A stretch of DNA of 43,115 nucleotides from an uncultured Rikenellaceae bacterium (GCA_964607105.1 CAZSJH010000002.1:1-43115); one strand, 5' to 3'; positions 5-33,894 are shown, numbered from the stretch's first letter. Numbers and translations are program-made. Notes: generated by a model not told the origin, from the sequence alone.

Positions 5-1711
5 TTGCTTTTTCGTTCATATGCTGGTATTCTGAGGCATACAACATTAACTGATATAACTCTGTTATTCGCAGTCACTACCTCATCCCTATTGACACTT
101 ATCGGATTTTCTATAATTAGCAGGCTATCAGGCTGGGGTTATTATCTGACTATATCTATATCCGTAATACTGATTCATTATGTTTCTATAACTGTCTTCT
201 TATTTTTTTCAAGGCTTTTTGTTAAGATGATCTTTCGTTTTGCAACAATGACCCGTAGGACCACTAAAAAAGTCCTTATTTACGGTGCTGGAGAGATGGG
301 TTTTGTTGTTAAACGGGTCCTTTTAAGTGATCCCTTGTCTGCTTTTGATGTAGTGGGTTTCATAGATGATAATAAGAAACTGCAGGGTAAAAAGATCAAC
401 GGCTTGCCCGTTTTTAGTTCTGAAGTGCTCAATACAAATTTCCTTTACAAGCATAAGATTAGCACTCTCATAATTGCCATAAAAAACGTAAAACCGGGAA
501 GGAAAAGTGAAATTTTACGGGCCGCAATAGATCTTGGGCTTGAAATACTTGAAACACCTGCAATTGATAAATGGCTGGGGGGTAAGCTCAATGTTGAGCA
601 GCTTCAAAATGTCAAACTTGAAGATCTCCTAGGCAGAGATCCAATAAGGTTGAACTTGGATCTTATCAGGCAGGGACTGAATGACAAAACTATACTTGTT
701 ACAGGAGCAGCCGGATCAATAGGTTCAGAAATAGTACGACAGCTGGCGATGTTCAATATTAAGAAAGCTATTCTTGTTGATTATGCAGAAACACCAATGT
801 TTCATCTTGATAATGAGTTGCGAAAACAGTTTAGTCACATTCAGTTTGATTTAATACTGGCGGATATAACAAATGCTAAAAAAATGGATCTCATTTTCAG
901 AGAGCATAAACCTGAAATTGTTTTCCATGCAGCAGCATATAAACATGTTCCGCTGATGGAAGCCAATCCTCATGAAGCTTTGAGGGTTAATGTTGGAGGC
1001 ACAAAACTAATCACTGATCTTTCAGTAAAATATGAGGTCAAGAAATTTGTCATGATCTCGACGGATAAATCGGTTAATCCTGTCAATATTATGGGTACAT
1101 CCAAGCGTCTTTGTGAGATGCTTTTGCAATCCAAGGCGCAGGATAAAGAGATTAATACACAATTTGTAATTACACGTTTTGGCAATGTCCTTGGCTCAAA
1201 TGGTTCAGTTATACCAATATTTGAAAAACAGATAAAGGATGGAGGCCCGGTTACAGTTACTCACCCCGAGGTAACCAGGTATTTCATGACAATCCCGGAA
1301 GCATGTGAGCTGGTACTTGAAGCGGGTTTTATGGGGAAAGGGAATGAGATCTTCGTTTTTGATATGGGTGATCCTGTTCCTATCGTCGACTTGGCATATC
1401 AGATGATACAACTTTCCGGACTGGTACCTGAGAGGGATATTGAAGTAATATTCACTGGTTTGCGACCCGGTGAAAAACTATATGAGGAATTATTAACAAA
1501 AGAAGAAAATACCCTTCCCACCCATCACCCTAAGATAAAAATTGCCAGGGTTACTGAAATAGACATATTAACTTTTAACGAAAAGATTGATAAATTATTG
1601 AACAATATTTACAGCTTATCAAATAGTGGAATAATAAATTCATTTAAGGATCTGGTACCTGAATATAAACCTACCACCACTGAGAAGTGGTCACTACCTA
1701 AGCCCATTTGA
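5..1711 (+). CDS. capD: CapD/PglF/WbpM-family membrane-anchored NAD(P)-dependent nucleotide-sugar (UDP-HexNAc) 4,6-dehydratase; the 5' end probably lies upstream of the window
   Basis: The frame is open to the left window edge. Hydrophobic N-terminal helices are followed by two Rossmann motifs (YGAGEMG, VTGAAGSIGSE) and the SDR catalytic AAYKHVP motif typical of the family. Confidence 0.85.
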   Translation: MLFRSYAGILRHTTLTDITLLFAVTTSSLLTLIGFSIISRLSGWGYYLTISISVILIHYVSITVFLFFSRLFVKMIFRFATMTRRTTKKVLIYGAGEMGFVVKRVLLSDPLSAFDVVGFIDDNKKLQGKKINGLPVFSSEVLNTNFLYKHKISTLIIAIKNVKPGRKSEILRAAIDLGLEILETPAIDKWLGGKLNVEQLQNVKLEDLLGRDPIRLNLDLIRQGLNDKTILVTGAAGSIGSEIVRQLAMFNIKKAILVDYAETPMFHLDNELRKQFSHIQFDLILADITNAKKMDLIFREHKPEIVFHAAAYKHVPLMEANPHEALRVNVGGTKLITDLSVKYEVKKFVMISTDKSVNPVNIMGTSKRLCEMLLQSKAQDKEINTQFVITRFGNVLGSNGSVIPIFEKQIKDGGPVTVTHPEVTRYFMTIPEACELVLEAGFMGKGNEIFVFDMGDPVPIVDLAYQMIQLSGLVPERDIEVIFTGLRPGEKLYEELLTKEENTLPTHHPKIKIARVTEIDILTFNEKIDKLLNNIYSLSNSGIINSFKDLVPEYKPTTTEKWSLPKPI

Positions 1712-3333: not shown

Positions 3334-5019
3334 ATGAGAATGAAACAGGAAGTATCATCGATACATATTTACTCAAAGTTAAATCCCAAAAAGATAAATA
3401 TTGGGGCATTCAATACTTATATCAGTGGTTTACCTCTTTTGATGGAAAAAAGGGGGTTGGGAGATGATTGGATTAGAAAATTAAATAAGGAGCTTATACA
3501 TAAACATATTAAGTCTGATAATGTATTAAAAGATTTGCTTAAATCTACCACCGGTTCCTTTTCATTAATTTTTTGGGATGGACAGGATTATATACTTGCT
3601 TCTGATATTATTAGAAGTTACCCACTTTTTTATGGATTTCATAAGGACAGGGTATTCATTACGGATAATCTAGATGAGTTCCAGAAAGAGAACGGTAGTT
3701 TTCAGATTGATAATAATAAACTTGTAGAGTTCTGCAGCACTGGCTGTGTGTATAATAATGGTACAGTATATCAGGATGTATATAGCCTCCAGGCTGGTGA
3801 GATAGTTACAATACGAAATAATAGTATAATTTCAGAACGATACTTCGAACTAATACCCAAAGAGTCTATTATCTTTAGGAATCTTTCTGATCTTGAGTAT
3901 ATAAAAAAATTCGATAATATACTCATGCTAATCTTCTCACGCTTGATCGGCAACCATCCTGATGTAAACAGGTGGGTAATTCCCCTCAGTGGAGGTCATG
4001 ATTCAAGGCTAGTAGTCAATTATCTTTATAGATTGGGAATAAAAAATGTTGTTTGTTTTTCCTATGGTACCCCAAAGAATGAACAATCTGTTATAAGTAA
4101 GCAAGTTGCTGAATCTTTAGGTTATGATTGGCATTTTGTCGAATATACAGATGAAAAATGGAAAGCACTTCATACAAATGGGGTTTTCAGTAACTATATT
4201 TCGTATGCGTGGAATGGTGTTTCAACACCTCATCTTCAGGACTTTCTGGCTGTTTATGAATTAAAGGAAAAAAGTATAATACTCGAAGGAGATATATTTG
4301 TCCCAGGCCATACAGTTGTTCCCGAAGGTGCATTTCATGCGAATACCCAGAAATTAGAAACTAGAGAAGAAGCCCTGGAATATGTTTTTACAAGGAATAT
4401 ATTGACTAACAGAGTATTAAAGGAGGGATCTTCGGTATATAATGAACTTCAGCTTATGTATGACAAGTCAAATACCAGCCCGAAAAACTTCATGGGATAT
4501 TGTGACTGGCAGGAGAGGCAATCGAAGTTTATTTCAAACAGCATTAAAGTATATGAGTTTTTTGGGTTTAAAACATTACAACCTATGTGGGATAGAGAGT
4601 GGGTCGATATCTGGATGAAGATTCCTGCAGAAAGGAGAGTGAATAGGGCCCTCCAGTTTTTAATGGAAGAACGAGGTGGATTAGTAAGTCAGTTACTACA
4701 TATTCCATATGCTGACGATGATAAAAAACCGGGTAAGTTTTCTCTGAAATCAATTTTGAAAAGAGTATTACCCAGTTTTGCAATAGTCCTATTACTACGT
4801 TTAACGAGGAGCTGTGTTGTCCTGGATGAAGCTATGAACATGCCATATGCAGTTGGAGATGTCACTGTGAAAAAATTTCTTGAGCCGATAGAAGACTTCC
4901 CGGAAAAGGTTATTTACTATTATAAAAATATAATGCCTCGTTACACATATCAGGTCGAGTCTAATATGTTGACAGTTCTTTATATTGTCAGAAGGCTTCA
5001 TGATAGGGTGAGAACTTGA
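3334..5019 (+). CDS. Asparagine-synthetase-B-like PP-loop ATP pyrophosphatase lacking the N-terminal Cys nucleophile, copy 1
   Basis: PP-loop PLSGGHDSRLV. The upstream region aligns by eye with the distal half of the glutaminase domain of the bona fide AsnB at 40434..42428 (SFSLIFWDGQDYILASDIIRSYPLFYG vs QFAFAIWDKQKEELFIARDRVGIRPLFYN; VYSLQAGEIVTI vs IYELSPGHYLIY). There is no MCG start. It is a paralog of 8407..10089. Confidence 0.7.
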   Translation: MRMKQEVSSIHIYSKLNPKKINIGAFNTYISGLPLLMEKRGLGDDWIRKLNKELIHKHIKSDNVLKDLLKSTTGSFSLIFWDGQDYILASDIIRSYPLFYGFHKDRVFITDNLDEFQKENGSFQIDNNKLVEFCSTGCVYNNGTVYQDVYSLQAGEIVTIRNNSIISERYFELIPKESIIFRNLSDLEYIKKFDNILMLIFSRLIGNHPDVNRWVIPLSGGHDSRLVVNYLYRLGIKNVVCFSYGTPKNEQSVISKQVAESLGYDWHFVEYTDEKWKALHTNGVFSNYISYAWNGVSTPHLQDFLAVYELKEKSIILEGDIFVPGHTVVPEGAFHANTQKLETREEALEYVFTRNILTNRVLKEGSSVYNELQLMYDKSNTSPKNFMGYCDWQERQSKFISNSIKVYEFFGFKTLQPMWDREWVDIWMKIPAERRVNRALQFLMEERGGLVSQLLHIPYADDDKKPGKFSLKSILKRVLPSFAIVLLLRLTRSCVVLDEAMNMPYAVGDVTVKKFLEPIEDFPEKVIYYYKNIMPRYTYQVESNMLTVLYIVRRLHDRVRT

Positions 5020-5110
5020 TAAAAAGATACCTTTAGTTACTTTTTTGAGATTTAGCCAGTAACAATCTAAAGGAGATAAAATTATTCCAGGAGATTTTAA
5101 TATCCAACTT

Positions 5111-5725
5111 ATGAATAAACGAAAAATATTAATTGTCCCTGTGATATTCTATCCCCAGAAAGCACTACTGTCTTACCGTACACCCGAAAGTGCACAATAA
5201 TATGACCAACAGTGATATAATGTGGTTTTGTATATACCATTAAGGGGATCTGATTATTTCTGTTGCATCTCCTTTCACTATACACTGGGGTGTTGAAAGA
5301 AGCAGAACAAAGAATCATAAGATAGCACATACTTGCATTGCTGATCCCTATAAGGACAATCAGGCAGACAGTATGAGAAAGCCATTCTATTTTAAGTATA
5401 TTGAAAAATTGGTCTCCAGGGAATGTGGATATCTGGCTATTACATTTAAAGCTTTAAGAAATAAATTTTACCTTGAGTTCCACAATATAATAGTTATTAT
5501 TCAACAGGTTTACAAAATACAAGATATAAAGCGTGCAGAAAGACTAAATAATAGTTTACCTACTTTTGTATTTTCAGGTTCTACTATTCCCGGTATGCGT
5601 CATCTTGATTTATTTTTTAGAATATGAAAAGATGTTAATCACGAATTCAATTCTGTGTATATACCAGCCAGCTTAACTATTTTTAAACCTCATGTGGAAT
5701 ATTGTGGAGATAGTCTGGTGATCAG
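5111..5725 (+). pseudogene. Decayed copy of the GT-B glycosyltransferase encoded at 10182..11306
   Basis: Hand translation gives MNKRKILIVPVIFYPQKALLSYRTPES then a stop (intact copy: MDRKKILIVSATFYPENSPRSFRTTEL). Further fragments follow in other frames: VVLYIPLRGSDY, ISVASPFTIHWGV...KNHKIA, RKPFYFKYIEKLVSRECGYL...LPTFVFSGSTIPGMRHLDLFF and GDSLVIS. There is an internal deletion and a 3' truncation just before wzx copy 2. Confidence 0.8.
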
Positions 5726-20484: not shown

Positions 20485-22632
20485 ATGAAGCAAATAATTC
20501 AAAATCTTAAAACAGGAGAGACCTGTCTTGAAGAAATCCCGGTACCTGTGCCCGGTACAGGAGAAATATTGATACGAACAACTCATTCACTGGTTTCTCT
20601 GGGAACAGAAAAAATGCTGGTAGAATTCAGCAAGGCCAACCTGATTCAAAAAGCCAGACAACAGCCCGATAAAGTGAAACAGGTTCTGGATAAAATAAAA
20701 TCGGACGGCTTACTTCCCACAGTGGAAACAGTATTTAAAAGACTCGAGGAGCCTCTTCCGCTGGGATATTGCAATGCCGGTGTTGTTGTGGAAACAGGAA
20801 AGGGAGTAACAGGTTTTTCAGTAGGGGACAGGGTAGCTTCAAACGGGAAGCACGCTGAATACGTATGCGTACCACAGAATCTTGTCGCTAAAATACCTGA
20901 CGGGGTAAGCGATGAAGAAGCTGCATTTACAGTTATCGGTTCTATCAGCCTGCAAGGAATACGTTTATGCAAGCCGGAATTTGGTGAAACCATAGTAGTT
21001 ATAGGACTGGGCTTGCTGGGGCTCCTTGCTGTCCAGATGCTTTTAGCTAATGGCTGCCGGGTAATCGGAATAGATATTGATAAGCATAAATGCAACATAG
21101 CCCGTGAATGGGGTGCAATCACTTTTAATTCTGCAGCAGGTGATGATCCTGTGAAAGCAGTGTTGGAAGTTACCGAAGGAACAGGGGCTGATGGAGTAAT
21201 AATTACGGCTTCAGCCAGAACACATGATATAATTTCACAGGCAGCCCAGATCAGTAGAAAGCGCGGGCGCATAATACTGGTAGGAGTAATAGGACTTAAT
21301 ATAAACAGGGCAGAATTTTATGAAAAAGAACTGACTTTCCAGGTATCCTGTTCATATGGGCCGGGACGTTATGATGACAATTATGAGCAAAAAGGTATTG
21401 ACTATCCCCTTCCATTTGTACGATGGACCGAGAAACGAAATTTTGAAGCAATACTGCAGGCTATAGCTGAAAGCCATCTGAAGGTTGGAGAACTTATTAC
21501 TGAAAAAGTTAAACTGGCTGACTATAATAGTATTTACGGGGACATGGGGCAATCGGGTTCTATTGCTTCAATTATTGAATATCCCGGGAATAGTGAAGTC
21601 AAAGATAAGAATGGCAATACAGTAGTATTAAGGAATCAGTCATTCAATGGAGATAAAGCCGTAACAGGATTCATAGGAGCAGGGAATTTCACTAAAATGA
21701 CTATGCTCCCTGCATTGAAAGGTACGGGGGCTGAATTTAAATATATAGCATCATCCGGGGGTGTTTCAGGAACAACACTTGCCAGGAAGTTCGGATTCAG
21801 CTACAGCACTACCGATTATAAAGAGATTCTCAATGACAGGGAAGTTGATACAGTTTTTATCACTACACGTCATAACTCGCATGCAAAATTTGTAATTGAG
21901 TCACTTAGAGCCGGGAAAAATGTCTTTGTTGAAAAGCCCCTGGCAATAAATAATGAACAACTGGAAGAAATAATAAAGGTTTATAATGAATCTCTGGACA
22001 GTGACAATCCTTCCACTTTGAGCGTTGGGTTTAACAGGCGATTCTCTCCGCATACACAGGCTATAAAAAAGACACTGGGAGACAATCCAGGGGCAATTAA
22101 TATTGTTGCCACTATGAATGCGGGCTTTATTCCTTTAAAAGTTTGGGTCCATGATATGCAGGTGGGTGGTGGCCGTATTATTGGTGAAGCCTGTCATTAT
22201 ATGGATCTATGCACTTATCTGGCAGGTTCAGAGATTATATCCGTTTGCATGAACTCAATGGGTGTTGATACACAGGATAATACTGATAATGCAAGCATCC
22301 TCCTCAAATTTAAAAATGGGAGTAATGCAGCAATAAATTATTTTGCCAACGGGGCGAAGTCATACAGTAAAGAAAGGGTTGAAGTTTTTTCACAGGAGCG
22401 GGTGATGATATTAGACAACTTCCGTACCACGAAAGCTTATGGCGTAAAAGGATTTAAAAATCTTAAAACAAGAATAGATAAGGGGCACAGAGCCCAGTTC
22501 AGTGAGTATATACGAAGAATCAAGGAAGGTGGTGAACCTCTCATTAATTTCGGTGAGATAGTTAACGTAACAAAAGCTTCTTTTGCTTCTGTTAGAAGCC
22601 TTAAGGAAAAGCGCTGGATAGATGTTGATTAA
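20485..22632 (+). CDS. Bi-domain oxidoreductase: N-terminal MDR/zinc-alcohol-dehydrogenase-like domain fused to a C-terminal Gfo/Idh/MocA NAD-binding oxidoreductase domain
   Basis: The MDR-type region has GYCNAGVVVETGKGVTGFSVGDRV and the Rossmann motif VVIGLGLLGLLAVQ. The second Rossmann motif GFIGAGNFTKMTMLPAL, then VFITTRHNSHAKFVIESLRAGKNVFVEKPLA, is typical of Gfo/Idh/MocA. Confidence 0.8.
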   Translation: MKQIIQNLKTGETCLEEIPVPVPGTGEILIRTTHSLVSLGTEKMLVEFSKANLIQKARQQPDKVKQVLDKIKSDGLLPTVETVFKRLEEPLPLGYCNAGVVVETGKGVTGFSVGDRVASNGKHAEYVCVPQNLVAKIPDGVSDEEAAFTVIGSISLQGIRLCKPEFGETIVVIGLGLLGLLAVQMLLANGCRVIGIDIDKHKCNIAREWGAITFNSAAGDDPVKAVLEVTEGTGADGVIITASARTHDIISQAAQISRKRGRIILVGVIGLNINRAEFYEKELTFQVSCSYGPGRYDDNYEQKGIDYPLPFVRWTEKRNFEAILQAIAESHLKVGELITEKVKLADYNSIYGDMGQSGSIASIIEYPGNSEVKDKNGNTVVLRNQSFNGDKAVTGFIGAGNFTKMTMLPALKGTGAEFKYIASSGGVSGTTLARKFGFSYSTTDYKEILNDREVDTVFITTRHNSHAKFVIESLRAGKNVFVEKPLAINNEQLEEIIKVYNESLDSDNPSTLSVGFNRRFSPHTQAIKKTLGDNPGAINIVATMNAGFIPLKVWVHDMQVGGGRIIGEACHYMDLCTYLAGSEIISVCMNSMGVDTQDNTDNASILLKFKNGSNAAINYFANGAKSYSKERVEVFSQERVMILDNFRTTKAYGVKGFKNLKTRIDKGHRAQFSEYIRRIKEGGEPLINFGEIVNVTKASFASVRSLKEKRWIDVD

Positions 22633-22638
22633 TTTTGG

Positions 22639-24540
22639 GTGAGTCTTTTTTTTATGATCTTATCTAGGATCAAAAAAATATTCTGGTATATTGAACTGAT
22701 TCCAAAACTGGGAATCCGGAATGTATTTTATGTTTTATATTACAGAGTGCTTCTTAGATCTGGGATTCTTAAAAAGAAATACCCGTTCATTAAGCCTGAT
22801 GAAGACGGTGTTCTATATCAAAAGTGTCCTTCAATAAGAAATGACTATCCTGATGAATGGAAACAGAACCTCATTAGTCAGGCAGATAGTATAGTAAAAG
22901 GAGTAATTCCTTATTACTCATACTATTGGATAAAACAATCAGTACCCCCTAATTGGTTTCTTAATCCCTTCAACGGAAAAGAATGCATGGAGGTTGATAA
23001 ACACTGGACGAGGATAGCAGATTTCAATGATGCTATCGGAGATATAAAGAACATATGGGAAGCTTCCAGGTTTTCCTGGGTTGGTATCCTGGCGAGGGCA
23101 TATGCAGTAAGTGGGGATAGGAAATACCAAAATACATTGAATGAATGGTTAAATGACTGGTTGAAATCTAATCCTGTTAATCAAGGCCCCAATTGGAAAT
23201 GTGGACAGGAAGCATCTATAAGGGTCTTAAACCTGCTCAATGCAGCATATATTCTCAGACAGCATGACAGGCCTTCAAAATTACTTATTGATACGATCAT
23301 TCAGCATTTAGAAAGGATATCTTCAAATATCAGGTATGCTATATCTCAGCGTAATAATCATGCTACAAGTGAGGCAGCTGCCCTGTTCATTGGAGGTAGC
23401 TGGCTCGCGGCTATTGATAGCGCCAGTGAAAAAGAATATAAGATTTACGCTGATAAAGGGAGACAGGTACTTGAACGTTTGCTAAGAAGTCTTGTTTACG
23501 AAGATGGCAGCTTTGCTCAACATTCAGTAAATTATCATCGTTTATTCCTTGACACATTGACTTTTATTACCTTCTGGATATTTGTGCTTGACCTGAAGCC
23601 TCTGTCTAAAGGATTTAATGAGAATGCTAAAAAATCAGCTGCCTGGCTGTTATCTATTGTTGATGAATCAGGCATGTGTCCAAACCTTGGCTCAAATGAC
23701 GGCACCATGTTGCTTGGCAATCATTCCTGCGATTACCTTGATTACAGGCCTTCAATGCAGGCTGCTGCCGTTATGATAAATAAAAAGCTGGCTTTCGATT
23801 CAGGGCCATGGGATGAAACACTCTACTGGTTTGATATTAAAAAAGGTAATTACCCTTTTTCACCTGTTTTGAAAAAGTCAATCATTCATTCATCAGGTTA
23901 TGTGGTGATGAGTGATGAAGATTCATGGGCTCTACTTCGTTTTCCGTATTACAAATTTCGTCCATCACATAATGATATATTCCATTTTGATCTCTGGGCA
24001 AATGGAAGGAACCTTCTGTTTGATTCGGGTAGTTTTTCCTATAATCCTGAAAAAGACAGTCATGTGCCCGATTTAAAATCGGTTCACTCCCATAACACAC
24101 TTTCATTTGATAAATGTGAACAAATGCCACGCCTGGGACGGTTCCTGCTGGGTAAATGGCTTAAATATGAAGAAAGAGGAGATATTGAAAGAATGAATAA
24201 CGAGGGTAGTTTTTGGGAAGGCTCTTACAGGGTGACCTCAGGTAATGTTCACATTAGAAAAGTAAGCTGGCATGAAAATAATTGGGTTATTCATGATAGG
24301 TTTACAGGAAAGTCAGAGAAGGTTGAATTAGGGTTTAATTTCGACGATGATAATTATTCATTGGAGAATAATATATTACTCTTATCCTGGGGTAAGCTAA
24401 CAATTTCAGATAATGCCAGCGTAGAAATTATAAGACACTGGATTTCCAATTATTATATGCAATCAAGACAGGTCTATCGCCTGGTTGTTAATACTGAAAA
24501 CAATTCTGAGATCGTGACTTCAATAAATATCTTCAAATGA
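22639..24540 (+). CDS. Heparinase II/III-like / alginate-lyase-fold protein
   Basis: AISQRNNHATSEAAALFIGG (NNH motif of the alpha/alpha toroid lyase domain) and PSHNDIFHFDLWANGRNLLFDSGSFSY (heparinase II/III C-domain pattern). The alternative ATG start at 22654 follows a T8 run. Confidence 0.7.
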   Translation: MSLFFMILSRIKKIFWYIELIPKLGIRNVFYVLYYRVLLRSGILKKKYPFIKPDEDGVLYQKCPSIRNDYPDEWKQNLISQADSIVKGVIPYYSYYWIKQSVPPNWFLNPFNGKECMEVDKHWTRIADFNDAIGDIKNIWEASRFSWVGILARAYAVSGDRKYQNTLNEWLNDWLKSNPVNQGPNWKCGQEASIRVLNLLNAAYILRQHDRPSKLLIDTIIQHLERISSNIRYAISQRNNHATSEAAALFIGGSWLAAIDSASEKEYKIYADKGRQVLERLLRSLVYEDGSFAQHSVNYHRLFLDTLTFITFWIFVLDLKPLSKGFNENAKKSAAWLLSIVDESGMCPNLGSNDGTMLLGNHSCDYLDYRPSMQAAAVMINKKLAFDSGPWDETLYWFDIKKGNYPFSPVLKKSIIHSSGYVVMSDEDSWALLRFPYYKFRPSHNDIFHFDLWANGRNLLFDSGSFSYNPEKDSHVPDLKSVHSHNTLSFDKCEQMPRLGRFLLGKWLKYEERGDIERMNNEGSFWEGSYRVTSGNVHIRKVSWHENNWVIHDRFTGKSEKVELGFNFDDDNYSLENNILLLSWGKLTISDNASVEIIRHWISNYYMQSRQVYRLVVNTENNSEIVTSINIFK

Positions 24541-25772
24541 GAGTCCTGTATTTCCACCAGTATTTCTGTACTCCTGAAGGTAATTCAGGCATCAGGTCGT
24601 ACGAAATGGCCCGACACCTGGTGGAAAATGGCAATAATGTGACGATGGTTTTTGCAGAATCACCAAGATTGAAATCACCACTCAGCGGTAAAACATATAA
24701 GAAAGGTGTCAGAAAGGGAATTTACCAGGGAATTGATCTTATTGAGTTTGACCTGCATTACAGTAATAAGATGAGTATTTTCAGAAGGTCACTTGTGTTT
24801 CTGAGATTTTCTTTAAGGAGTATACGCCTCGTCTTCAAAGAAGATTTTGATATTCTTTTTGCCACTTCAACTCCTATCACTGCAGGAATACCCGGTATTG
24901 TAATGAAGGTGTTCGGAAAAAGAAAACCTTTCGTGTTTGAAGTAAGGGATCTCTGGCCAAAGCTACCACGCGAGATGGGAGTGATAAAAAACAAAGTAAC
25001 ACTCTGGGCTATGGGCTTGCTGGAATATCATTCTTATAATAAGGCAGATGCATGTGTGGCTTTGTCTCCGGGTATTGAAGAGGGTATAAAAAGGCGCTTA
25101 AAAAAGGATATACCTGTCTACCTTATTCCAAATGGCTGTGACCTTGACTTATTTAAGCCAGGGACTCATTCGAAGACAATTTTTCCCGGTTGCCAGGAGG
25201 ATAATCTAGTTGCTGTTTTCATAGGAGCCCATGGGATGGCAAATGGTTTAGACGCTGCACTGGATGCCGCAGCTGAGCTGAAGAAGAATAAATCGGGCAA
25301 AAATATAAAGATTGCTCTAATAGGTGACGGGAAATTAAAACCCCAACTAAAGCAAAGGGTAGATAAAGAAGGACTTGATAATGTTATACTGATGGACCCT
25401 GTACCTAAAAGACAATTATCAAAACATCTGTGGGCCGCAGATGTAGGCTTAATGTTACTGGCCAATGTACCAGCATTCTATTACGGAACCTCACCAAATA
25501 AATTCTTTGACTATATATCTTCCGGATTACCGGTATTAAATAATTATCCGGGCTGGCTTGCAGGAATGATAAAACAAAATAACCTGGGAGTTGTTGTTGA
25601 ACCTGATAACGCAAGGGAATTTTCGGATGCCCTCATCTATATGAATTTGAAGAAAGATAAGTTAATAATAATGAGCATTAATGCCAGGAAATTTGCTGAA
25701 CAATATTTTGACAGGAAAAAACTTGCATTGTTATTTGAAGAAGCTCTGAAAAATACTTATCAAAGGGATTAA
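24537..25772 (+). CDS. GT4-family glycosyltransferase, WbuB-like
   Basis: MRVLYFHQYFCTPEGNSGIRSYEMARHLVENGNNVTMV is the characteristic WbuB-type N-terminus. C-terminal KFFDYISSGLPVLNN is also present. ATGA overlap with the upstream gene. Confidence 0.8.
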   Translation: MRVLYFHQYFCTPEGNSGIRSYEMARHLVENGNNVTMVFAESPRLKSPLSGKTYKKGVRKGIYQGIDLIEFDLHYSNKMSIFRRSLVFLRFSLRSIRLVFKEDFDILFATSTPITAGIPGIVMKVFGKRKPFVFEVRDLWPKLPREMGVIKNKVTLWAMGLLEYHSYNKADACVALSPGIEEGIKRRLKKDIPVYLIPNGCDLDLFKPGTHSKTIFPGCQEDNLVAVFIGAHGMANGLDAALDAAAELKKNKSGKNIKIALIGDGKLKPQLKQRVDKEGLDNVILMDPVPKRQLSKHLWAADVGLMLLANVPAFYYGTSPNKFFDYISSGLPVLNNYPGWLAGMIKQNNLGVVVEPDNAREFSDALIYMNLKKDKLIIMSINARKFAEQYFDRKKLALLFEEALKNTYQRD

Positions 25773-29842: not shown

Positions 29843-30718
29843 ATGAATAATATATACGCTACCAGCTGGCATGAAGCAAAGCCGCCTCCTTCAAGGATTA
29901 GTAAGAAATCAAGATATGTGCTAAGGAATATGTTGCTGTCAGTTTACTCTCGAGTAAACAAGAAACAGGATGATAAGTACCTAAGGTGTTTGTATTGTCA
30001 CTATGTGTTTGACGATCAGCGAAAAGAATTTGAGAATCTGATAACAAAGATTAAGAGGATTGGTGAATTTGTTGATACAGCAACATGTTTGGACATGATA
30101 CAGGGAAAAAGAGATATAGATAGAAGATATTTTCACCTGTCTTTTGATGATGGTTTTAGGAATCATTATACCAATGCTGTTCCATTATTGAAAAAACATA
30201 AGGTACCGGCAATATTTTTTGTCCCTTCCTCCCTGGTAGGATCCAGCTATGAAGAAACTAAACAATATTGCACGGTAACCAATCAATACAGGGCTGTAAT
30301 TGAAATGTTAAGATGGGATGACCTGAGGGATATGCTTTCGATAGGTTTTGAGATAGGTTCACATACTAAGACTCATGCCCGATTTTCTGAACTATCTGAA
30401 AACAAGTCCATGCTAAAAGATGAAATATTTGGCTCAAAAAAGGAATTAGAGGATAACCTGAATTATAAATGTGATTATATATCGTGGCCCTATGGAAGTC
30501 TGGCTGATGTAGATATTAAATCTCTTGATAATGTAAAGATGGCAGGTTATAAAGCCTGTTTCGGGGCATACAGGGGTACTCCTCTTCCAAGGGTAACTGA
30601 TATTTTTAGAATACCCAGGCACCAGGTTGAAGTGCAATGGCCCTTATCTCACATATTATATTTTACCAGGGGTAATATGGAGAAGAGAAGAGTAAGAAAT
30701 AAAATAACCTATGTTTAA
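29843..30718 (+). CDS. Polysaccharide deacetylase (CE4, NodB homology domain)
   Basis: HLSFDDGFRNHY (motif 1, DD), EIGSHTKTHARF (motif 2, H-x-x-x-H), ISWPYG (motif 3). Confidence 0.8.
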   Translation: MNNIYATSWHEAKPPPSRISKKSRYVLRNMLLSVYSRVNKKQDDKYLRCLYCHYVFDDQRKEFENLITKIKRIGEFVDTATCLDMIQGKRDIDRRYFHLSFDDGFRNHYTNAVPLLKKHKVPAIFFVPSSLVGSSYEETKQYCTVTNQYRAVIEMLRWDDLRDMLSIGFEIGSHTKTHARFSELSENKSMLKDEIFGSKKELEDNLNYKCDYISWPYGSLADVDIKSLDNVKMAGYKACFGAYRGTPLPRVTDIFRIPRHQVEVQWPLSHILYFTRGNMEKRRVRNKITYV

Positions 30719-31295
30719 AAGGGTATTTGATATAAGTGCTTCTTTATTTGGTCTGGTTCTGATAAGCCCGGTACTCTTGATTTTAGTATTAATTATTAAA
30801 TTATATATGCCCGGGCCGGTGTTATTTACCCAGAAACGAGCCGGCAGGCATGGCAAACCATTTACAATTTATAAGTTCAGAACTATGATTGTGAATCATG
30901 CCGGGAGCACTGTTTCTGTTAAAGGAGAGACCCGTATAACTACCCTGGGAGCAAGACTTCGTAAGTATAAACTCGATGAACTGCCGGAGCTCTGGAATAT
31001 TCTTATTGGCGATATGAGTTTTGTTGGTCCCAGACCCGATGTGCCTGAATATGTGGAGAAGCTCAAGGGCATAGAAAAACTGATCCTTGAACTTCGCCCG
31101 GGTTTGACCGGGCCGGCTACATTGAAATATTCAAATGAAGAGGAACTTCTTGCTTCCGTTCCTGACCCCCGGAGATTTAATGATGAAGTGCTATGGCCTG
31201 ACAAGGTAAGGATTAACCTGGAGTATTATCAGAACAGGAGTTTCTTTGGGGATATACTTATTATTTTTAAAACAGTTCTTGGGATAACACGGTGA
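30711..31295 (+). CDS. Small PglC/WcfS-like initiating phosphoglycosyl transferase (bacterial sugar transferase family)
   Basis: KRVFDISASLFGLVLISPVLLILVLIIKL re-entrant helix, PVLFTQKRAGRHGKPFTIYKFRTM, DELPELWNILIGDMSFVGPRP. 8-nt overlap with the upstream gene. Confidence 0.9.
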   Translation: MFKRVFDISASLFGLVLISPVLLILVLIIKLYMPGPVLFTQKRAGRHGKPFTIYKFRTMIVNHAGSTVSVKGETRITTLGARLRKYKLDELPELWNILIGDMSFVGPRPDVPEYVEKLKGIEKLILELRPGLTGPATLKYSNEEELLASVPDPRRFNDEVLWPDKVRINLEYYQNRSFFGDILIIFKTVLGITR

Positions 31296-32115: not shown

Positions 32116-33264
32116 ATGACTAAAAAGAACAAACGAATCTTCCTTTCTTCACCTCACATGTCAGGTAATGAGATGAAATACATCCAGAAAGCCTTTAACC
32201 AAAACTGGATAGCCCCTCTGGGACCAAATGTGGATGGTTTTGAGAGATCACTTGCCAGTTATTGTGGCGTTAATCATGCTGCAGTATTGAGCTCGGGATC
32301 AGCTGCTATCCATCTCGCTTTGATATTACTTGGAGTTGGGAATGAAGATGAAGTAATTGCTTCTTCATTCACCTTTTCAGCTACTGTTAACCCTATAGTT
32401 TACCTTGGTGCTACCCCAGTACTGGTAGACAGCGAGCCCGGAACCTGGAACATGGACACTGGAATGCTTGAAGCTGCAATAAGAGACCGTTTAACCAAAA
32501 AAGGAAAGAAGCCCAAAGCAATTATCATGGTACATCTATACGGAATGCCGGCCAAAATGGATGAGGTTATGGCCATAGCCGATAAATATGAAATACCTGT
32601 AATTGAGGATGCAGCAGAAGCTCTGGGAAGCAGATATAATAATGAACCTGTTGGTTCATTTGGTAAAATGGCTGTGCTCTCATTCAATGGCAATAAAATA
32701 ATAACAACTTCAGGGGGAGGAGCCCTTATCTCTGATGACAGAGAATTAATAGAGAAGGCCAGGTTCCTTGCAACCCAGGCACGTGATAAAGCTCCTCACT
32801 ATCAGCATAGCCAGATTGGTTATAATTACAGGATGAGTAATGTCCTGGCTGGTATCGGAAGGGGACAGATGGAGGTAATAGATCAGAGGGTCAGGAAGAG
32901 GAGGGATAATTATAAGTTTTATTACGAAAACTTAAAGGATTATCCGGGGATCAAATTCCTGGTAGAGCCTGGAAATAAGTATTTTTCAAATTACTGGCTT
33001 ACTACCATTTTAATTGATCCAAAGGAGGCTGGAACATCACGCGAAGAAATACAGGCCGAACTTGAGAAAAATAATATTGAATCAAGGCCTTTGTGGAAGC
33101 CGATGCACCTGCAGCCTGTCTTTGAATCATGCCCGGCTTACCTGAACGGCATCTCTGAAGATTTGTTCATTCATGGGCTTTGCCTGCCCTCAGGTACCAA
33201 TATGTCAGATGAAGATCTGAATCATGTGTTGAGCGTGATCGAGAATAAACTTCTTGAAAAATAA
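32116..33264 (+). CDS. DegT/DnrJ/EryC1/StrS-family PLP-dependent sugar aminotransferase (PglE/WcfR-like)
   Basis: IFLSSPHMSGNEMKYIQKAF, VIEDAAEALGS, the SFNGNKIITTSGGGAL (PLP Lys) region, and YNYRMSNVLAGIGRGQ. Confidence 0.9.
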   Translation: MTKKNKRIFLSSPHMSGNEMKYIQKAFNQNWIAPLGPNVDGFERSLASYCGVNHAAVLSSGSAAIHLALILLGVGNEDEVIASSFTFSATVNPIVYLGATPVLVDSEPGTWNMDTGMLEAAIRDRLTKKGKKPKAIIMVHLYGMPAKMDEVMAIADKYEIPVIEDAAEALGSRYNNEPVGSFGKMAVLSFNGNKIITTSGGGALISDDRELIEKARFLATQARDKAPHYQHSQIGYNYRMSNVLAGIGRGQMEVIDQRVRKRRDNYKFYYENLKDYPGIKFLVEPGNKYFSNYWLTTILIDPKEAGTSREEIQAELEKNNIESRPLWKPMHLQPVFESCPAYLNGISEDLFIHGLCLPSGTNMSDEDLNHVLSVIENKLLEK

Positions 33265-33351: not shown

Positions 33352-33894
33352 ATGTCGATAAGAAGATTAATAAAACGTATCAGGAGATTTTACGCGAAAA
33401 ATGCCGGCTCAGATGCAAAAATAAAATATTACAGGAAACAGGGCATGAAGATAGGAGAAAACTGTCGTTTTGAAACAATGTCATTTTCGACTGAACCATA
33501 CCTGATTGAGATTGGGAATAAAGTAGCTATTGCAATTGGTACATTATTTATTACACATGATGCAGGTATCCGGTGCTTTAGGGATGAATTTCCCGCTGAA
33601 GATATTTTTGGTAAAATAATCATTGGTGATAATGTGTTTATAGGTTCAAACTGTACTATTTTACCTAATACTACTATAGGTAATAATTGTATAGTTGGTG
33701 CAGGAAGCGTAGTGCGGGGGAGGTTCCCTGATAATTCAGTGATAGCTGGTAATCCTGCAAAAGCAATAACTAACATGAATGTCCAGAAATTAATATACAG
33801 GCAGAATCCTGGCCGACTGAAAACGGGTTATATGTCCGATATGGATAAAAAACCTTTGATAATGAAACATTTTAAAATAGATAATATCAAATAA
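33352..33894 (+). CDS. Left-handed beta-helix (hexapeptide-repeat) acetyltransferase
   Basis: IGDNVFIGSNCTILPNTTIGNNCIVGAGSVVRGRFPDNSVIAGNPAK hexapeptide repeats. Confidence 0.8.
   Translation: MSIRRLIKRIRRFYAKNAGSDAKIKYYRKQGMKIGENCRFETMSFSTEPYLIEIGNKVAIAIGTLFITHDAGIRCFRDEFPAEDIFGKIIIGDNVFIGSNCTILPNTTIGNNCIVGAGSVVRGRFPDNSVIAGNPAKAITNMNVQKLIYRQNPGRLKTGYMSDMDKKPLIMKHFKIDNIK

Follow-up and report, generated by a model that had tools for sequence, protein, structure and literature searches.

Many O-antigens, capsules, and exopolysaccharides contain N-acetyl-L-galactosaminuronic acid (L-GalNAcA) or related L-hexosaminuronic acids, examples being the O10 and O19 antigens of Pseudomonas aeruginosa and Acinetobacter capsules; exopolysaccharide I (EPS I) of Ralstonia solanacearum, an L-GalNAcA-type polymer, is its main wilt virulence factor. 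We know of no demonstrated enzyme for making these sugars. Here, we describe a three-gene cassette that supplies precise candidates. It lies in a 43,115-nucleotide stretch of DNA from an uncultured Rikenellaceae bacterium (GCA_964607105.1, CAZSJH010000002.1:1-43115; hereafter, the window) and encodes a bi-domain oxidoreductase (OX), a heparinase II/III-fold protein (HEP), and a glycosyltransferase (GT). On balance, we favor the reading that the trio makes an N-acetyl-L-hexosaminuronic acid (L-HexNAcA), probably L-GalNAcA, in the cytoplasm for a surface polysaccharide, with HEP as a C5-epimerase, OX inverting C3, and GT transferring the sugar to a bacillosamine-type primer. The interest of the cassette lies in its enzymology rather than in the window's copy.

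The cassette has already been named and its role postulated. WeeE and WeeF of Acinetobacter venetianus RAG-1, equivalent to GnlA and GnlB of A. baumannii, are the postulated makers of UDP-L-GalpNAcA for a capsule containing this sugar. Compared by domain type only, GnlA has an ADH_N domain and a second Gfo-like part, and GnlB is a "heparinase" resembling polysaccharide lyase family 12 (PL12) and PDB entry 4fnv. A 2026 K-locus preprint doubts the GnlA/GnlB assignment, given the heparinase fold. In the Acinetobacter locus KL215, gnlB occurs with no gnlA beside it, as in the OX-less cassettes described below. In P. aeruginosa PA14, zbdP (PA14_23420) encodes a 78 kDa protein joining a medium-chain dehydrogenase/reductase (MDR) to a Gfo/Idh/MocA part; it lies 8 bp upstream of hepP (PA14_23430) and is co-transcribed with it, and HepP is a heparinase II/III-domain protein in which no export signal was found (PMC5732420). 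ZbdP and HepP have the same architecture as OX and HEP, a likeness taken from the literature and not from a sequence alignment, and HepP is annotated as shorter, at ~550 aa. The zbdP-hepP pair is presumably located in the PA14 O-antigen cluster. The PA14 O-antigen has the structure -4)-alpha-L-GalNAcA-(1-3)-alpha-D-QuiNAc-(1-3)-alpha-L-Rha-(1- (PMC2997053), in which QuiNAc is N-acetylquinovosamine and Rha is rhamnose. The motif alpha-L-GalNAcA-(1-3)-D-Bac/-QuiNAc, where Bac is bacillosamine, is found in P. solanacearum GMI1000, in P. aeruginosa ATCC 27577, O10, and O19, and also in V. vulnificus, Rheinheimera, and Alteromonas (PMC11200240). Three structurally characterized L-GalNAcA polymers go with the OX-HEP pair, and of these links only the one to Ralstonia was tested by sequence. 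Our literature searches found nothing joining a heparinase to an O-antigen gene cluster, a bi-domain oxidoreductase, WbuB, or a flippase, and on C5-epimerase with capsule they found only papers on heparin engineering. The preliminary description of this DNA knew of no biochemical assignment for the trio; that holds insofar as the function is still inferred, but it passed over the postulated role of WeeE/WeeF (GnlA/GnlB) in making UDP-L-GalNAcA and the report of HepP as a heparinase.

The window comprises bases 1-43115 of contig C2 in a metagenome-assembled genome (MAG) of 429 contigs that is 86% complete. The trio is encoded as follows:

20485-22632, plus strand: OX, a fused MDR and Gfo/Idh/MocA oxidoreductase of 715 aa (Pfam, NCBIfam)
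22639-24540, plus strand: HEP, a heparinase II/III-fold protein of 633 aa from a GTG start (628 aa if the ATG at 22654 is used)
24537-25772, plus strand: GT, a GT4 glycosyltransferase of 411 aa (Pfam GT4 and GT1)

These open reading frames (ORFs) and their Pfam domains confirm the trio that had been described from the sequence. The protein lengths agree with those characteristic of the cassette type (~700-730 aa for OX, ~600-640 aa for HEP, and ~405-420 aa for GT). The three genes are tightly packed in one direction, and the stop of HEP and the start of GT share the reported ATGA overlap. The 6-nt gap reported between OX and HEP exists only with the GTG start; with the ATG at 22654, the gap is 21 nt. 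This ATG is the start in an identical database protein (P0004; 628 aa) and in the family alignment, and it is likely the true start of HEP. A minus-strand ORF (20646-21272; 208 aa) sits wholly within the conserved OX gene and is most likely spurious, not a gene.

A protein search of plasmid records identified HEP matches on 132 Ralstonia megaplasmids, and the match in R. solanacearum OE1-1 lies in the eps (EPS I) operon (CP009763.1). This operon encodes the same trio in unchanged order, its stop and start codons overlapping: RSOE_04580 (dehydrogenase; 713 aa), RSOE_04575 (heparinase), and RSOE_04570 (glycosyltransferase WbuB). The window's proteins, which are orthologous to these, align with 47% identity over 714 residues for OX, 52% over the full length for GT, and 35-37% over 86-97% of the length for HEP. 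The eps order is EpsA, a phosphatase, a kinase, WecB (EpsC), UDP-N-acetylmannosamine (UDP-ManNAc) dehydrogenase (EpsD), two membrane proteins, a transferase, and an acyltransferase; it continues with the dehydrogenase, the heparinase, WbuB, a small sugar transferase, an acetyltransferase, and a DegT protein. The genes that follow the trio in Ralstonia are also downstream in the window, where, unlike in Ralstonia, CE4-like, ATP-grasp, GNAT, and BNR genes stand between GT and the sugar transferase. Whereas the Ralstonia operon carries EpsC and EpsD, the window has neither, the genes being off-contig or absent. The sugars of EPS I are GalNAc, bacillosamine, and galactosaminuronic acid (PMC3759889). 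Shigella sonnei WbgV, which belongs to a pathway for N-acetyl-L-altrosaminuronic acid (L-AltNAcA) encoded on the virulence plasmid, was considered as a further family member and rejected, there being no Shigella plasmid match at E ≤ 1e-10.

To survey the cassette, we ran a pattern scan on one genome per species, which identified a relative in at least 587 genomes. We then called ORFs in the best 80 loci and probed them with the window's own proteins. These loci span more than 10 phyla, including Bacteroidota, Pseudomonadota, Thermodesulfobacteriota, Acidobacteriota, Planctomycetota, Cyanobacteriota, and Deinococcota, and they include an Alteromonas locus with the trio (L083). A GT orthologue lies directly 3' of HEP in 60 of the 68 loci with room for one. 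OX lies directly 5' of HEP in 32/66 loci and within 2.5 kb upstream in 43/61. A homologue of a phosphoglycosyl transferase (PGT) occurs within 5 kb downstream of HEP in most loci with a full flank (35/41), usually followed by DegT and CapD. DegT and acetyltransferase genes come after the trio in most related loci, and CapD homologues end the module in many; the recurring module is (WecB-like)-(OX)-HEP-GT-PGT-acetyltransferase-DegT-CapD. Precursor genes in OX-containing loci, where present, are a classical WecB and a 400-440-aa sugar-nucleotide dehydrogenase (L045, L048, L068, L070, and Ralstonia). Because the arrangement recurs across phyla, it is far beyond chance. The earlier belief that the trio recurs in surface-glycan loci is thus upheld as to its wide recurrence, but the constant partner of HEP is GT and not OX.

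Several of these loci show variations of the cassette. L041, from a Mariniphaga MAG, carries the OX-HEP pair twice in tandem: besides the trio, the locus encodes another HEP of 604 aa, ~5.4 kb upstream of the matched one, and another OX of 715 aa, ~3.2 kb upstream of it. The GT match near HEP in L066 (Synechococcus) and L061 (Ca. Solibacter) has 621-631 aa, compared with the usual ~410; it is directly downstream of HEP in L066 and ~2 kb downstream in L061, and its length suggests a fusion with another domain. L066 also has a TviB-like dehydrogenase gene between OX and HEP. In L027 (Desulfofustis glycolicus), a sulfotransferase gene (4444-5469) lies just upstream of an OX-less HEP-GT pair, and the polysaccharide made there may be sulfated.

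HEP matches Hepar_II_III_N (PF16889; E 1.1e-11) and Hepar_II_III_C (PF07940; E 1.8e-18), in line with the NNH motif and C-domain pattern first noticed; the motif is N239-N240-H241 in GTG-start numbering (codons 23353-23361). HEP falls inside the tree of its family, among relatives; the family is unevenly distributed, being carried by 8 of the 400 genomes sampled from the phylum. At E ≤ 1e-3, it comprises 7090 clusters of related sequences, and at E ≤ 1e-30, 1176. In line with the preliminary description, neither hydropathy nor the AlphaFold2 model gives evidence of a signal peptide, although no dedicated predictor was run. The N-terminus is broken up by Arg and Lys (top 19-residue Kyte-Doolittle mean, 1.34), and the model (predicted local distance difference test score [pLDDT], 96.2) places two confident helices at residues 2-36 (pLDDT 92-97). 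Because of these helices and of conserved family positions among them (L19, G20, and Y30), the first 36 residues are not a cleavable signal, and HEP looks cytoplasmic. Residues 1-55 (window 22654-22818) form a conserved N-terminal helical hairpin in which the same three positions are nearly or fully invariant. This hairpin has no counterpart in almost all solved lyases, and it could be a docking element for GT or the membrane.

Based on model-based structure comparison, HEP consists of an (alpha/alpha)-toroid and a beta-sandwich, and its best match is PL12 heparinase III (PDB 4fnv; Z 24.1, root-mean-square deviation 3.4, 496 residues), with 4mmh at Z 23.9; PL17, PL33, and PL15 lyases follow at Z 20-21.7. 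HEP has the two-domain fold of PL12 heparinase III/HepC (4fnv, 4mmh, and 5jmd) and shares the Asn-His and Tyr-His pairs. However, identity is 16-19%, and HEP differs in lacking a signal peptide, in its extra hairpin of ~55 residues, and in its biosynthetic rather than catabolic context. Hashimoto et al. reportedly assigned catalytic roles in P. heparinus HepIII in 2014 to Asn240, Tyr294 (His295), and His424. In a profile alignment, on which the HepIII numbering offset was verified, N240-H241 and Y299-H300 of HEP (GTG numbering) align with N240-H241 and Y294-H295 of HepIII. Three of these four HEP residues are invariant among 71 relatives (33-58% identity), and H300 is ≥90% conserved, so residues for C5-proton abstraction are present, as the preliminary description had looked for.

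That description had also pointed to the chemistry that the lyase fold shares with C5-epimerases. Human dermatan-sulfate epimerase 1 (DS-epi1; PDB 6hzn) is indeed among the structural matches (Z 18.8, 491 residues, 12% identity). This lyase-fold enzyme takes the C5 proton of a uronate and re-protonates rather than eliminates; it acts on a polymer in the Golgi, whereas HEP is bacterial, apparently cytoplasmic, and probably acts on a nucleotide sugar. PDB sequence and profile searches up to E = 10 gave no match between DS-epi1 and HEP. Judging from the structural model, HEP may work like DS-epi1, yet it is not a member of that family.

OX has ADH_N and ADH_zinc_N domains at residues 85-296 and GFO_IDH_MocA N and C domains at 395-635. 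Based on Pfam and NCBIfam, its N-terminal half is an MDR protein resembling BchC and threonine dehydrogenase, and its C-terminal half belongs to Gfo/Idh/MocA; the protein is soluble, without a membrane segment. Among 49 orthologues, both Rossmann motifs (G174xG176xxG179 and G398xG400), the Gfo EKP motif (E483-K484-P485), and E568/H571/D574 are invariant, as is a Ser (S38-x-G-T-E) where MDR enzymes usually carry a zinc-ligand Cys. From this conservation, both halves look active. The characterized enzymes closest to the Gfo half are inositol 2-dehydrogenase and several dehydrogenases acting at C3 of sugars, namely archaeal UDP-GlcNAc 3-dehydrogenase, levoglucosan dehydrogenase, and DgpA. This kinship is compatible with oxidation at C3 but is no proof of it.

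We infer the following chemistry, including the order of the two inversions and their occurrence at the level of the nucleotide sugar. HEP would remove the C5 proton of a UDP-N-acetyl-hexosaminuronic acid, with the Asn-His pair neutralizing the carboxylate and Tyr/His serving as base and acid; the enolate would be re-protonated on the other face, yielding the C5 epimer (an L-sugar) with no cleavage. C5 epimerization would be the natural outcome because the free 4-OH of a nucleotide sugar is a poor leaving group. OX would invert C3, its Gfo/Idh/MocA half oxidizing the 3-OH to a ketone and its MDR half reducing this from the opposite face. Because the fused protein would pair an oxidizing and a reducing half of opposite facial selectivity, the inversion would be redox-neutral, and we place it at C3, since a 4-keto group would make the uronic acid decarboxylate. 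Relative to L-GalNAcA, the configuration is opposite at C3 and C5 in D-ManNAcA and at C2, C3, and C5 in D-GlcNAcA; HEP and OX together could convert UDP-D-ManNAcA to UDP-L-GalNAcA. GT would then move the L-sugar to a bacillosamine/QuiNAc-type primer linked to undecaprenyl diphosphate (Und-PP) and provided by the PGT, DegT, acetyltransferase, and CapD genes. The product would be the widespread alpha-L-GalNAcA-(1-3)-Bac motif, and the carboxylate of the L-sugar would be available to the amide-forming enzymes of the locus.

The synthesis of N-acetyl-L-fucosamine (L-FucNAc; 6-deoxy-L-GalNAc) offers an analogy. In the FnlA/FnlB/FnlC and WbuB route, UDP-GlcNAc is inverted at C5, C3, and C2, and a WbuB-type GT4 enzyme encoded directly after adds the L-sugar to the primer. 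The cassette follows this scheme and places its genes alike, in some loci with a WecB-like 2-epimerase adjoining HEP, but the Fnl enzymes (a short-chain dehydratase-epimerase and a reductase) are unrelated to the lyase fold and the MDR/Gfo protein. The C5 hydrogen would be activated by the 6-carboxylate in the cassette, compared with a 4-keto group in the Fnl route. GT is proposed, by this analogy, to place L-HexNAcA on the lipid-linked primer sugar because it occupies the same slot as the WbuB-type L-FucNAc transferases after fnlABC, directly before the primer-sugar genes. WbuB family members transfer L-galacto-configured sugars from nucleotide donors. The "WbuB" label of GT has as its sole source the annotation of the Ralstonia orthologue, and the best NCBIfam match is to the WcaI subfamily (65 bits against a cut-off of 276).

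If this reading is true, the cassette would bring a new reaction class to the polysaccharide-lyase fold, and the "heparinase" annotation would be corrected on thousands of genes (1176 clusters at E ≤ 1e-30). The virulence and biofilm phenotypes of PA14 hepP would be re-explained as O-antigen loss. The window's glycan would carry L-HexNAcA on a bacillosamine-type primer, its carboxylate open to amide-forming enzymes.

Several observations weigh against this reading. We know of no enzymology for any member of the cassette. UDP-ManNAc dehydrogenase was not found in the genome, which is an 86%-complete MAG with the locus head cut off; the genome has a Ugd, a TviB-like UDP-GlcNAc 6-dehydrogenase, and one WecB-like gene. 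Neither a WecB nor a UDP-ManNAc dehydrogenase gene is present in the window, which starts at a contig end. The WecB-like gene, on contig C48, was considered as part of the missing locus head and rejected, its neighbors (RNase Y, phosphorylase, and DUF5916 genes) giving a housekeeping context. The links to PA14 HepP and Acinetobacter GnlB rest on the literature and not on sequence comparison, and no P. aeruginosa entry was among the best 120 matches in a search from a Pseudomonas yamanorum family member, which leaves HepP without a sequence-level link.

The active site of HEP also appears to differ from that of a lyase, because the third catalytic His of HepIII (H424) aligns with an invariant Arg (R441) in HEP; a conserved H444 and an invariant H449 are nearby in the sequence alignment (GTG numbering). 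This difference at the third position would suit an alternative in which HEP performs other C5-carbanion chemistry, such as a 4,5-dehydration, whose unsaturated or 4-deoxy product OX would then reduce; the final sugar would not be a simple C5/C3 epimer. Loss of a C5 proton beside a carboxylate followed by loss of the beta-hydroxyl is common chemistry, and OX, with its two redox domains, could handle an intermediate of this kind. However, the three cassette-linked polysaccharides share L-GalNAcA, which has a normal 4-OH, and HEP also works in genomes without OX. We consider this alternative improbable.

The sole published assay assigns heparinase activity to HepP (PMC5732420); it consisted of one spot of the Ni-purified fusion on a protamine plate, with buffer alone as the negative control (PMC5732420). 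The hepP mutant showed a delayed pellicle, less biofilm, and slower worm killing (PMC5732420). These results, together with the PL12-type fold and catalytic Asn-His and Tyr-His pairs, bear on whether HEP is a genuine polysaccharide lyase. Such an enzyme could act on nascent polymer, trimming or clearing it as AlgL does when alginate is made, or could attack glycosaminoglycans of the host, the role claimed for HepP: in the plate assay, the recombinant protein cleared heparin, and the hepP mutant has biofilm and virulence defects (PMC5732420). Yet no export signal was found in either HEP or HepP, while both the polymer and host heparin lie outside the cytoplasm. HEP scores 41.7 and 33.9 bits on the NCBIfam HepC equivalogs, far from reaching their cut-offs of 700 and 600, and none of the 80 loci places it in a catabolic context, its neighbors being sugar-nucleotide and transferase genes. 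LPS-like material (LPS, lipopolysaccharide) is a large part of the PA14 pellicle matrix (PMC2997053); therefore, the hepP phenotypes fit those expected from O-antigen loss, and the HepP paper mentions neither O-antigen nor LPS (PMC5732420). We regard a lyase function as very improbable, in agreement with the initial view that the setting of HEP in the window makes a degradative role unlikely.

A further difficulty for the proposed cassette function concerns OX. Of the 17 loci that have no OX in the 2.5 kb 5' of HEP, 13 are in genomes that lack an OX orthologue altogether. In both the HEP and the GT tree, loci with and without OX are intermingled, and there are close sister pairs of which one member has OX and the other does not. 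The idea that the two states represent separate HEP or GT lineages, and hence different substrates, was rejected, since there were 12 changes for 13 OX-less rows, no better than with shuffled labels. The HEP-GT pair is the constant core of the cassette and OX is dispensable, a finding that is new from this analysis.

This lack of HEP and GT divergence is unexpected if OX changes the GT donor, and it therefore keeps alive an alternative order of events, in which GT adds D-HexNAcA to the primer and HEP (C5) and OX (C3) then edit the Und-PP-linked terminal residue at the cytoplasmic face, like the polymer-level enzymes DS-epi1, Glce, and AlgG. The GT sequence does not track OX presence, which fits the same unedited D-sugar donor everywhere, and HEP is tied more closely in gene order to GT (60/68) than to OX (43/61). 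To our knowledge, all characterized lyase-fold or uronate C5-epimerases act on chains and not on nucleotide sugars, and DS-epi1 is among the fold matches of HEP. In contrast, the GT orthologue is annotated as WbuB-type, a family that uses L-galacto nucleotide donors; OX is soluble and lacks a membrane segment; and the HEP gene precedes GT, as in L-FucNAc pathways. Editing after transfer is unlikely in our view, though more credible than either of the other two alternatives.

A WecB-like 2-epimerase occurs within 3.2 kb of HEP in 9/13 OX-less loci compared with 10/49 OX-containing loci (Fisher p = 0.0015, a test that ignores relatedness), and it tends to take the place of OX in OX-less loci. 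Based on scores against the WecB model TIGR00236, these enzymes fall into two classes. The HEP-adjacent 2-epimerases score 308-353 bits (gene directly upstream of HEP in L018, L024, L031, L038, L040, L046, and L052), whereas for classical WecB genes that accompany a sugar-nucleotide dehydrogenase the score is 500-530 bits (L068:426-1568, L045:6713-7870, and L088:4821-5948). By analogy with FnlC in L-FucNAc synthesis, the substrate of the HEP-adjacent class may be a uronic acid or an L-configured sugar. OX and the divergent 2-epimerase resemble accessory modules that would set C3 and C2, respectively. OX-less cassettes would yield N-acetyl-L-gulosaminuronic acid (L-GulNAcA), which is known as a glycine amide in the V. 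cholerae polysaccharide VPS (PMC3901696). We tentatively extend this to a broader proposal, about which we are more doubtful than hopeful: HEP-GT may be a general unit for N-acetyl-hexosaminuronic acids, first inverting C5 and then transferring the product, with OX (C3) and the WecB-like 2-epimerase (C2) interchangeable, giving different L-sugars (L-GulNAcA, L-GalNAcA, and perhaps N-acetyl-L-talosaminuronic acid [L-TalNAcA] or L-AltNAcA) from one precursor. If so, HEP would be the first polysaccharide-lyase-fold enzyme shown to be a nucleotide-sugar epimerase, and HepP, the P. aeruginosa protein published as a "heparinase", would belong to O-antigen biosynthesis.

Based on Pfam, the ~35 kb around the trio form a single plus-strand polysaccharide locus. 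It contains a CapD-type dehydratase, two Wzx flippases, two AsnB-like genes, an EpsG-type polymerase, several GT4s, six ATP-grasp genes, CE4-like genes, a PglC-type phosphoglycosyl transferase, a DegT protein, and a hexapeptide acetyltransferase. Because base 1 of the window is base 1 of contig C2 and lies inside the CapD-type gene, the contig does not include the head of the locus (export genes, and perhaps precursor genes). A protein sorted by the type IX secretion system is encoded near the locus and points to Bacteroidota. The genes with a proposed part in making the primer are the following:

5-1711, plus strand: CapD/PglF-type UDP-GlcNAc 4,6-dehydratase, truncated by the contig start (Pfam Polysacc_synt_2, E 9e-115)
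30711-31295, plus strand: small PglC-type phosphoglycosyl transferase, PGT (Pfam Bac_transf, E 2e-57)
32116-33264, plus strand: DegT-type aminotransferase (Pfam)
33352-33894, plus strand: hexapeptide acetyltransferase (Pfam)

PGT is, by sequence, a member of the conserved downstream module HEP-GT-PGT-DegT-CapD. The CapD/PglF-type dehydratase is proposed to catalyze the first step toward the primer sugar, and the DegT and acetyltransferase genes probably make this bacillosamine/AAT-type sugar, the likely acceptor of GT. The AsnB-like and ATP-grasp genes fit later amidation of a carboxylate, in keeping with the preliminary description. Our best guess for the sugar in this organism, by orthology, is L-GalNAcA. 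Elsewhere in the same genome, contig C15 (G000, L006; 3104-9213) carries genes for a DegT protein, an acetyltransferase, a Gfo/Idh/MocA protein, the TviB-like UDP-GlcNAc 6-dehydrogenase, GalE, and RmlB, and this cluster resembles the WbpA/B/E/D route to UDP-GlcNAc3NAcA.

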